Positions 33,820-35,981 of a DNA stretch of 40,644 nucleotides are shown here, in pieces. The translations under genes and the position numbers were made by a program. The stretch covers positions 1 to 40,644 of IMG/VR virus record IMGVR_UViG_2561511241_000001, one strand, 5' to 3'. Source of the stretch: a virus (Duplodnaviria > Heunggongvirae > Uroviricota > Caudoviricetes). The stretch's first letter is position 1. Each line of letters begins with the position of its first letter. Below the pieces are notes generated by a model. It was not told where the DNA came from, made no database searches, and worked only from the letters and a program-made list of their open reading frames with translations.

Positions 33820-34566
33820 ATGCATCGTATAGACACGAAAACCGCGCAGAAGGATAAGTTCGGCGCGGGTAAGAACGGTTTTACCCGTGGTAACCCCCAG
33901 ACTGGCACACCTGCCACCGATCTGGATGATGACTACTTTGATATGTTGCAGGAAGAACTCTGCAGCGTGGTGGAGGCATCCGGTGCCAGCCTGGAGAAGG
34001 GGCGAAACGACCAGTTGCTTACCGCGCTTCGTGCTCTGCTGTTAAGCCGCAAGAATCCGTTTGGCGATATCAAATCGGATGGCACGGTGAAAACGGCTCT
34101 CGAAAACCTTGGTTTGGGAGAAGGTGCTCCAGCTATTGGCGTTCCGTTCTTCTGGCCGTCCGCTGCAATGCCAAATACTGTAATCGACAGCTGGTCCTGT
34201 ATGGTGTTTTTGAAGTTCAACGGCGCGAAATTCTCTGCCACTGATTATCCTGTGCTGGCGAAAGTGTTTCCTTCGCTGGTATTACCTGAAGCCCGCGGTG
34301 ATTTCATTCGTATCTGGGATGACGGGCGAGGTGCAGACGGTGGTCGCGAATTATTAAGCTGGCAGGCAGCTACAAACTTTTCTCAGTTTGCCGGGAATAT
34401 AGGCGAAGGTGCGGGACACGCAATTAACTTTCATGATGGCATCGCCGGAAATCAGCCAGGATTTTCACGATTTAATTTCACCAGTAACTCTGTGGGTGAT
34501 GGTGTGAATTTTGTTGCAGTCAGACCGCGAAATATTGCATTTAACTTTCTGGTGAGGGCTAAATAA
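33820..34566 (+). CDS. tail fibre protein (constant N-terminus + invertible variable C-terminus)
   Basis: 248 aa; the inversion crossover site lies at codons 93-101 (LENLGLGEG), separating the constant and variable modules. Confidence 0.7.
34098..34122. other. left crossover site of invertible tail-fibre segment (pix/gix-like)
   Basis: TCTCGAAAACC-TT-GGTTTGGGAGAA; its right half is the exact inverted complement of the left half of the site at 35956-35981; resembles hix/gix. Confidence 0.55.
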
Positions 34567-35159
34567 TGAAACCTGTTTTTGATGAAAATGGGCTGGCTAC
34601 AGTGCCGGGCGATATGCGTTGTTTTTATTATGATGCTGAAACATCTGAGTATACGGGCTGGTCTGATGAATATATTAATACTGGCGTAAGTATGCCCGCC
34701 TGTTCCACTGGTATTGACCCTGGCGAAAACATTCCGGGAAGAGTGGCAGTATTTACAGGTAAGGGATGGAGCCATGAAGAAGACCATCGCAATGAGACTG
34801 TTTACTCAATCGAAAATGGCGCAGCTGTTACAGTGGATTATATCGGTGCCATCAAAGACGGTTATGTCACGATTTCACCGTTAACGCCATACGATAAATG
34901 GGATGGTGAGAAATGGGTGACAGACACTGAGGCACAACACAGTGCCGCAGTAGACGCGGCAGAAGCACAGCGCCAATCACTGATTGATGCAGCAATGGCT
35001 TCCATTAGTCTGATTCAGCTGAAGTTACAGGCCGGACGGAAACTGACTCAGGCAGAAACAACCCGACTTAACGCCGTGCTGGATTACATTGACGCGGTGA
35101 CGGCAACAGATACCAGCACCGCGCCGGATGTCATCTGGCCTGAACTGCCGGAGGCGTAG
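34566..35159 (+). CDS. tail fibre assembly protein (Tfa)
   Basis: 197 aa; C-terminal DYIDAVTATDTSTAPDVIWPELPE is the conserved Tfa C-terminus. Confidence 0.75.
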   Translation: MKPVFDENGLATVPGDMRCFYYDAETSEYTGWSDEYINTGVSMPACSTGIDPGENIPGRVAVFTGKGWSHEEDHRNETVYSIENGAAVTVDYIGAIKDGYVTISPLTPYDKWDGEKWVTDTEAQHSAAVDAAEAQRQSLIDAAMASISLIQLKLQAGRKLTQAETTRLNAVLDYIDAVTATDTSTAPDVIWPELPEA

Positions 35160-35583
35160 GCCATTCAATATCTGGCGCACCGGAAGTATCGACCAGCTCC
35201 AGTGCGTCCAGATAATCCAGCCACAAATTATATTGCGTCAGTTCGTCACCTTTCAGACGACCAATAGCCGCTTTACCGGGCCATTGCTTACTGTTCATGT
35301 ATTCGTTGGCCTGGTTAATTAGTAGCTGTCTTTCTGATTCAGTAATTTCAATAAGCTCTTCATGCGTGGGTGGAGGAATATCTGCCCACGCAGGCAGCCC
35401 ATCATCTCCGGCAATACGGATTTTTCCTTGTGGCGGTTCAGCCATAAACTCACTGATAATATTTTGATTTACTTCCTTAGCGTCTGATAAATCCCATCCC
35501 TCTGATTTATATTTATCAATCATATCCACAGGGAAAAAAGCATTATGCCTTGCGCTATAAACATATTCGTCCATATAAATCAC
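35131..35583 (-). CDS. alternative tail fibre assembly protein (inverted orientation)
   Basis: 150 aa; C-terminal LWLDYLDALELVDTSGAPDIEWPTPPA Tfa motif; converges on and overlaps the other tfa as in the Mu G segment. Confidence 0.7.
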   Translation of the reverse strand: MIYMDEYVYSARHNAFFPVDMIDKYKSEGWDLSDAKEVNQNIISEFMAEPPQGKIRIAGDDGLPAWADIPPPTHEELIEITESERQLLINQANEYMNSKQWPGKAAIGRLKGDELTQYNLWLDYLDALELVDTSGAPDIEWPTPPAVQAR

Positions 35584-35594
35584 CCTGAATAAAA

Positions 35595-35969
35595 TTACTC
35601 ACCAACAGCCCACCAACTGTAATTCATCGATACCGTGTCGCTGGTTGATGACGTTCTGTAAGCAGAATTAAAGCCGGTTAACGTTGGGCCTTCTGCAGTC
35701 ATCACGAACCCTCGCCCAGCGCCTAAAGGCGCACCGCCATCACCAGAATGGGTAAGAATGGCGCAGTCCGCTTTTTTAGGGAAAGGGATAGGAAATGTAA
35801 TCCTCATTGTTTGCGTCGATAATTTCGGCATAGCCTCACCTCGACCATATTGCAGAATTTTACCGTTGGGTAATTTCATCCATCCATCACCACTGGCAAA
35901 AGAAGCCATGTCCGGTATCTGATTTTCCCCTGTTCCCCACACCCCGTTTCGCTGCTTCTCCCAAACCAA
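35595..35969 (-). pseudogene. alternative tail-fibre C-terminal module (out of frame with the constant region)
   Basis: The ORF opens exactly at the right crossover site, but its frame is offset by one nucleotide from the fibre constant region after inversion. Confidence 0.5.
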
Positions 35970-35981
35970 CGTTTATGAAAA
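35956..35981. other. right crossover site of invertible tail-fibre segment
   Basis: TTCTCCCAAACC-AA-CGTTTATGAAAA, immediately upstream of the invertase gene. Confidence 0.55.

Follow-up and report, generated by a model that had tools for sequence, protein, structure and literature searches.

A Pin-invertible tail-fibre segment of e14 type with its alternative fibre end one base out of frame in a prophage of Escherichia coli UMNK88

How can a tail-fibre switch of a prophage keep its crossover sites and its invertase and nevertheless fail to produce one of its two fibres, and is such a failure a property of the system or of a single sequence? This question is raised by the IMG/VR virus record IMGVR_UViG_2561511241_000001, which was analysed over its whole length of 40,644 nucleotides (hereafter the window) and carries a prophage with an invertible tail-fibre segment and a neighbouring pin gene for a serine DNA invertase. 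A preliminary description of this locus had stated that the alternative fibre module lies out of frame with the constant part of the fibre, and had left it between a switch that is locked, a switch that has decayed and an indel of one nucleotide in the sequence. In this study, the layout of the segment, the frame of both fibre ends and the distribution of the offset among related prophages were investigated. The locus is, as we hold with near certainty, a canonical Pin switch which carries a non-conserved insertion of one base, and judged from the sequence the frame offset is caused by this extra base, which is private to this record among the collections searched.

Layout of the switch and frame of its two fibre ends

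The features on which the analysis relies are given below, with positions counted in the window.

33820-34566, + strand: tail-fibre gene as expressed now, 248 amino acids (open reading frame, ORF), with the constant N-terminus at 33820-34110 (...ENLGLGE) and variable end 1 at 34111-34566
34097-34122, + strand: left 26-bp crossover (pix) site within the fibre gene, CTCTCGAAAACC-TT-GGTTTGGGAGAA, central dinucleotide at 34109-34110
34111..35967, no strand: invertible segment, about 1.86 kb between the crossover centres (repeat search, in-silico inversion)
34566-35159, + strand: tfa, tail-fibre assembly chaperone for end 1, 197 amino acids (Pfam Caudo_TAP, E=2.3e-27)
35131-35574, - strand: tfa', tail-fibre assembly chaperone for end 2, 147 amino acids (Pfam Caudo_TAP, E=2.7e-30)
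35595..35967, - strand: alternative fibre end 2, gp53-like C-terminal module (124-codon ORF at 35595-35969), silent here and +1 relative to the crossover site
35887-36009, - strand: pin-proximal leader ORF, MMPFARYFCIFINVGLGE..., 40 amino acids
35933-35938, - strand: site of the extra base, coding strand GTGGGGAACAGG; on the + strand TT at 35933-35934 and CCCC at 35935-35938
35956-35981, - strand: right 26-bp crossover (pix) site, + strand TTCTCCCAAACCAACGTTTATGAAAA, reverse complement TTTTCATAAACG-TT-GGTTTGGGAGAA, central dinucleotide at 35968-35969
36036-36590, + strand: pin, serine DNA invertase, 184 amino acids, apparently intact (Pfam Resolvase, E=1.8e-51; HTH_7, E=4.6e-13)

The frame of the alternative end was determined by in-silico inversion, in which positions 34111-35967 were flipped at the central dinucleotides. 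The core of the crossover site is read as GGT TTG GGA GAA in the constant part and as (TT)G GTT TGG GAG AAG in the 124-amino-acid alternative ORF, just as had been described. The flipped fibre consists of 123 amino acids, of which 101 are constant residues and the remaining 22 are out-of-frame codons that read AAKRGVGNRGKSDTGHGFFCQW before the stop; the stop expected about 22 codons past the junction thus falls at exactly that distance. After inversion the gp53-like module stands in the +1 frame, and the in-frame fusion fails in the flipped orientation only. Removal of one base at 35933-35938 in silico results in a continuous fibre of 220 amino acids ending in ...WWAVGE, which is also the length of the annotated fusion in a flipped copy of the same prophage in strain ETEC4085 of enterotoxigenic E. 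coli (ETEC). As a control, the P segment of element e14 of E. coli K-12 was inverted by the identical rule and produced an in-frame fusion of 262 amino acids, which validates the method. The extra base also shortens the pin-proximal ORF from 136 to 40 amino acids, the longer form being a leader joined to the gp53-like module as in Sakai ECs_0283, and the leader of the ORF at 35887-36009 is homologous to the K-12 stfE leader MPFACYFFIFINVGLGE.

The two crossover sites are well defined. In the 40.6-kb window there are just two exact copies of the 15-mer TTGGTTTGGGAGAAG, one on the + strand at 34109-34123 and one on the - strand at 35955-35969, compared with 0.06 occurrences expected by chance, and none of 100 shuffled sequences reached two matches; a repeat search returned a 20-nt inverted repeat of 95% complementarity at 34104-34123 and 35955-35974. 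The left and right sites have 21 of their 26 bases in common, share an identical central TT and stand in inverted orientation. The right site lies where it had been placed before, while the left one begins at 34097 and not at 34098, a correction of one base. A shufflon or a multiple inversion system of Min type was considered and ruled out, as the core was matched only twice in the window with two mismatches allowed.

The gene order between and beside the sites agrees with the preliminary description, in that ORFs and Pfam matches recover a fibre C-terminus, tfa, an inverted tfa', an inverted fibre module and an intact Pin-like invertase. Each variable end has its own Caudo_TAP chaperone inside the segment, and tfa and tfa' are convergent. 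It was also observed that the 3' ends of the two chaperone genes share 29 nt (35131-35159), and that this overlap is flanked by an imperfect inverted repeat of 18 nt (35078-35095 and 35204-35221). The 248-amino-acid fibre product recorded no Pfam match at E<=0.01; the intact homologue of end 2 matches Gp53-like_C (E=5.4e-13). Serine recombinases of the Din family have their active-site serine in YVRVS-T and a C-terminal helix-turn-helix (HTH) domain. The window's Pin starts with MLIGYVRVSTNDQ, is of full length and contains both the catalytic and the HTH domain. The recombinational enhancer of this family, bound by Fis, lies within the 5' portion of the gene for the invertase; in the window, pin agrees with K-12 pinE at 171 of its first 180 nt. 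A scan of 33000-36900 for promoters and terminators detected sites no more commonly than in shuffled sequence.

The extra base and the orientation of the segment among related prophages

When Sakai Sp1 (ECs_0283), O157 strain TR01 and phage vB_EcoM-606R2 were aligned with the window, each of the three showed one gap of a single nucleotide. On the coding strand the window reads GTGGGGAACAGG, as against GTGGGAACAGG in ETEC4085 and C1 and GTGGGGACAGG in Sakai Sp1. ETEC4085 and C1 are the nearest haplotypes and are identical to the window over about 280 nt from the crossover site, except for the extra base; their codons are GTG GGA ACA GGG, compared with GTGGGGAACAGGG in the window. The change is therefore best described, on these alignments, as a coding-strand run of three G extended to four (C-run at 35935-35938 on the + strand), situated 29-34 nt inside the segment as counted from the crossover centre. 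An extra A, taken from the first alignment with Sakai Sp1, was replaced by this description after alignment with the nearest haplotypes, and it is the same single base either way.

With respect to distribution, a 100-nt query from inside the segment was compared with 5,426 complete E. coli genomes, and 481 genomes gave matches of at least 80% coverage. In the five best of these, the 100 nt of the query lay on 99 nt of the record at 99.0% identity, the sole difference being a gap of 1 nt; among the full-length matches listed, all span 99 nt and none reaches 100%. An earlier query of 101 nt crossed the crossover site and could have missed flipped copies of the insertion, and the segment-internal query agreed with it. 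In IMG/VR, the insertion was found in 0 of the 44 contigs matched by a pattern that allowed either length, all of them having the short form. The module starts 26 nt downstream of the crossover core in 43 of the 43 contigs where the core was found, and in most of these copies 123 codons follow in the constant frame, the shorter read-throughs falling mostly at contig ends. The insertion allele had 0 exact matches in 185,579 species-representative genomes and likewise 0 in the JGI metagenome contigs. At the protein level, the exact 248-amino-acid fibre was found on one contig only in a large gene index, namely CP002729.1 of the porcine enterotoxigenic strain E. coli UMNK88, and the shifted ORF of 124 amino acids has no protein on record.

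Comparison of the junction with related prophages, which had been proposed earlier as a check, showed that all those examined read straight through the crossover site into the gp53-like module, and an offset shared with related phages, which would have spoken for a different explanation, was seen in none of them. Since every relative examined is one base shorter and in frame, the failure is attributable to one private base and not to a different architecture.

The orientation of the segment varies among the relatives. In ETEC4085 (NZ_CP122634.1) the same prophage occupies the same chromosomal site with the segment flipped and an intact gp53-like fibre annotated; over the 38.8 kb of flanks this copy differs from the window by one mismatch and no indel in 1-34123, and it is fully identical in 35955-40644. 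The orientation in strain ETEC1749 is as in the window, both orientations were found among O157 Sp1 copies, and about 20 of the IMG/VR copies are joined to the constant-type half-site, usually with at least 98 codons upstream, and 19 stand beside the pin-proximal half-site. The inversion machinery of this prophage thus looks functional rather than locked, and with both sites matching those of the working e14 switch base for base and a Pin of full length, inversion should still occur. We infer the same for Pin in UMNK88 itself. PinE-dependent inversion of the P segment, with both orientations coexisting in K-12 cultures, has been published (PMC12529663, PMC4272514), and other Pin-family invertases can work in trans on these sites (PMC12529663).

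A mosaic structure was also noticed in the segment. Its interior at 34103-35750 is 100% identical to the segment of O157:H7 Sp1 (Sakai copy), the flanks are of ETEC4085 type, and sequence of ETEC4085 type resumes from about 35686 to the right site. A cassette patch of about 1.6 kb has been swapped, with the left breakpoint inside the left crossover site (34103-34123) and the right breakpoint within the gp53-like module, where the sequences are identical over 65 nt. This suggests an exchange between Pin segments of different prophages, and an assembly chimera is less likely.

Mutation, record error and other explanations of the offset

In the mechanism that we propose, Pin would recombine the inverted 26-bp sites at the TT in their centre, and, one of the sites being inside the fibre gene, each inversion would exchange the end that follows the constant N-terminus of 101 amino acids, the choice being between end 1, served by Tfa, and the gp53-like end 2, served by Tfa'. 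Inversion would continue in the present strain, flipped cells would make a stump of 123 amino acids that lacks a receptor-binding domain, and the alternation of host range would be reduced to a switch between a working and a dead fibre. The same base would cut short the pin-proximal leader and gp53-like ORF as well.

Our preferred reading, to which we assign a probability of roughly 0.45, is that the extra base is a real and recent loss-of-function mutation private to UMNK88; its presence in the DNA, and not just in the record, is what we infer. Compared with the independent ETEC4085 assembly, the record has 0 length differences over 1,980 homopolymer runs of at least 3 bases in 38.8 kb, so that it is not riddled with run-length errors. 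The lineage also has at least one other annotated frameshift, in sequence that is common to the window and ETEC4085 with 0 indels between them, which favours a real change. Several observations weigh against this reading. The change is a one-base difference in run length in a record, CP002729.1, that dates from about 2011, and differences of this kind are the typical error of early pyrosequencing. The absence of CP002729.1 from the RefSeq complete-genome collection searched would fit a quality-flagged assembly. The extra base falls on a G/A difference between haplotypes (GGG-A-AC against GGG-G-AC), where the window has GGG-GA-AC, which looks like the consensus of mixed reads. Only one substitution separates the window from ETEC4085 in 38.8 kb, and at that rate of change a real indel within a stretch of 0.3 kb would a priori be about as improbable as a consensus error. 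Finally, the gene index was searched with the exact 248-amino-acid fibre for a second, independent assembly or set of reads from UMNK88, and none was found.

If the extra base is instead a homopolymer or consensus error of the record, both fibre ends would be intact and UMNK88 would alternate normally between two host ranges. We regard this as a serious contender, if short of even odds. It would account for a single change from three to four G on an otherwise identical background of 280 nt, for an allele unique among all the collections searched and for the status of CP002729.1 outside the RefSeq set; moreover, the position coincides with a G/A polymorphism of the two parental haplotypes of the mosaic, as though both alleles had been called. 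Against it, the other polymorphic positions nearby are cleanly of one haplotype, which speaks against a mixed-read consensus, a run of three to four bases is short for a consensus-level pyrosequencing error, and the absence of any indel disagreement with ETEC4085 over the 1,980 runs applies here too. Of the three options in the preliminary description, the indel is upheld by the relatives, all one base shorter at 35933-35938, and the locked switch is contradicted by the intact sites and Pin; decay and record error are almost equally probable. As an observation apart, the sister prophage in ETEC1749 (L006, NZ_CP122712.1; locus 12684-16681) is annotated with frameshifts in three genes, those for baseplate J, for tfa' and for the silent fibre end, and matches the alternative half of the window at 87.6% only, with 39 gaps. 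These frameshifts look like the product of a noisy long-read assembly and not of biology, and caution is advised with single indels in records of this kind.

The other explanations are far less probable. Selection might have kept the frameshift because it removes a costly leader and gp53-like protein, so that it would act as an adaptive off-switch for a receptor-masking protein, with a flipped fibre state lethal for the phage as the price. The homology of the ORF at 35887-36009 to the stfE leader agrees with this, as do the unshifted form, a leader and gp53-like protein of 136 amino acids like Sakai ECs_0283, and the resting orientation of the window, in which the equivalent ORF is present. 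In K-12, StfE2, a chimera of leader and gp53-like module, reportedly blocks adsorption of phage T2 at the cost of FadL- and OmpF-dependent uptake (PMC12529663). Loss of the corresponding protein in the window is the sole way in which the frameshift could amount to something other than an accident. However, the allele was seen once, many relatives with the module in the silent, pin-proximal position keep it intact, the promoter scan at chance level gives no sign that the leader ORF is expressed, and the gp53-like module differs from that of K-12 StfP; we therefore consider selection improbable. A segment no longer able to invert in this strain is, in our estimation, slightly harder still to believe. 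Nothing favours it directly beyond the one orientation visible in a single assembly, and it is opposed by both sites being identical to the functional e14 sites with matching central dinucleotides, by a full-length Pin with 95% identity to PinE, by near-identical prophages in both orientations and by the ability of other Pin-family invertases to act in trans (PMC12529663). The least credible of all is programmed +1 recoding, by which the ribosome would slip at GUG-GGG-A and read onward ACA GGG GAA AAU, so that the flipped state would yield some full-length fibre. A +1 shift at the GGG codon does restore, by direct reading, the ETEC4085 peptide ...RGVGTGENQ.... Yet the offset is not conserved, every relative being in frame; the A site at the slip offers neither a slow codon nor a stop, AAC being common; the rare AGG follows it by one codon, and there the tRNA-Asn of the P site would be unable to pair anew; and no stimulatory element was identified.

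Beyond annotation the result matters little. In the record of one strain, the alternative fibre is dead. Should the base be real, phage from flipped cells of UMNK88 would lack the receptor-binding end of the fibre, a small example of how a bet-hedging switch decays. Should it be an error, the orphan ORF of 115 amino acids in GenBank should become a silent module of 136 amino acids. The cassette patch at the crossover site and the variable cargo slot near pin, with a SIR2 protein that may be a defence gene, may outweigh the frameshift in usefulness.

Host prophage, neighbouring genes and known inversion systems

The window runs from proA and tRNA-Thr(CGU) (1369-1444) to the paoD side, and a direct attachment repeat of 64 nt with 96.9% identity marks attL at 1399-1462 and attR at 40062-40125. 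The prophage so delimited measures about 38.7 kb at thrW, the chromosomal site that Sp1/CP-933H of O157:H7 uses as well. It appears complete, with genes for integrase, repressor, replication, Q, lysis, terminase, portal, HK97-type protease and capsid, followed in the tail region by sheath, tube, tape measure and a baseplate of Mu Gp45/46/47/48 type. The P segment thus stands in an otherwise complete SfV/e14-like myovirus prophage at tRNA-Thr near proA in UMNK88, which shows that SfV-like prophages of pig ETEC that are full-length and apparently intact can carry an e14-type Pin switch.

Next to pin, and directly downstream of it at the end of the prophage, 36811-39621 (- strand) encodes a protein of 936 amino acids with an N-terminal SIR2_2 domain (Pfam, E=3.4e-24), whose likeness to ThsA in PADLOC is confined to the SIR2 part. 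Elsewhere the same slot holds mcrA (e14), a LEM-3-like GIY-YIG protein (Sp1), GmrSD_C (L059) or two hypothetical proteins (C1), from which it appears to be a variable cargo slot that several of the relatives fill with genes for nucleases or with candidate defence genes. A caspase-family protein (11786-12775, - strand) and a small TIR-like, ThsB-like protein (12762-13163, - strand) lie between the Q antiterminator and the holin and likely form a second defence module. A small gene at 28262-28666 (- strand), between the tape-measure and DNA-circulation genes and directed against the late operon, is moron-like in its position; the ETEC4085 annotation names it an OB-fold protein, and it had no PADLOC match.

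Among known phages, the serotype-converting SfV, SfII, SfI and SfIV of Shigella flexneri are 97% identical to 14000-34000 of the window (head, tail and baseplate) over 66-85% of that length. The match stops at the fibre region and includes neither the window's pin switch nor its SIR2 cargo. Sp1/CP-933H of O157:H7 (Sakai ECs_0280-0284) has Tfa and Tfa' proteins identical to those of the window and the same arrangement of site pair and pin. It is, however, a lambdoid remnant whose fibre gene abuts replication genes, its gp53-like end is in frame (136 amino acids with the leader), and the window departs from it at 35751, matching ETEC4085 from that position to the end of pin.

Invertible segments of this general kind are found in Mu (G/Gin), P1 (C/Cin) and Salmonella (H/Hin), where a serine invertase is encoded beside a segment bounded by inverted imperfect palindromes of 26 bp. 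In Mu and P1 one constant fibre N-terminus is combined with alternative C-termini, for each of which there is a separate chaperone, whereas Hin switches a promoter and not a coding sequence. The fibre genes and host phages of these systems differ from those of the window, and we know of no Gin, Cin or Hin system with an out-of-frame alternative. For Pin, PMC12529663 cites cross-complementation with the G and H segments.

The closest counterpart is the P segment of e14 in K-12, which, together with PinE, was reportedly described by Plasterk and van de Putte in 1985 and by Mehta and colleagues in 2004. Both of its 26-bp crossover sites are base-for-base identical to those of the window, PinE is identical to the window's Pin at 175 of 184 amino acids, and the constant N-terminus of StfP is identical at 99 of 101. 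The two share one gene order (fibre end, tfa, tfa', inverted fibre end, pin) and also the upstream ymfQ/Mu-Gp48 gene. One of its ends is gp53-like as here, and the other end of the window resembles the StfE end when the translations are read by eye, with no domain detected. The variable ends and chaperones are nevertheless different alleles. Moreover, e14 is a remnant of 15 kb in icd, whereas the switch of the window stands in a full-length prophage of about 38.7 kb at tRNA-Thr; the cargo after pin is mcrA in the former and the 936-amino-acid SIR2-domain protein in the latter; and the alternative fusion of e14 is in frame at 262 amino acids, in contrast to the gp53-like end of the window with its +1 base. 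The switch is thus the known P segment/Pin system of e14 type, a member of the Gin/Hin/Cin family, and involves no new mechanism.

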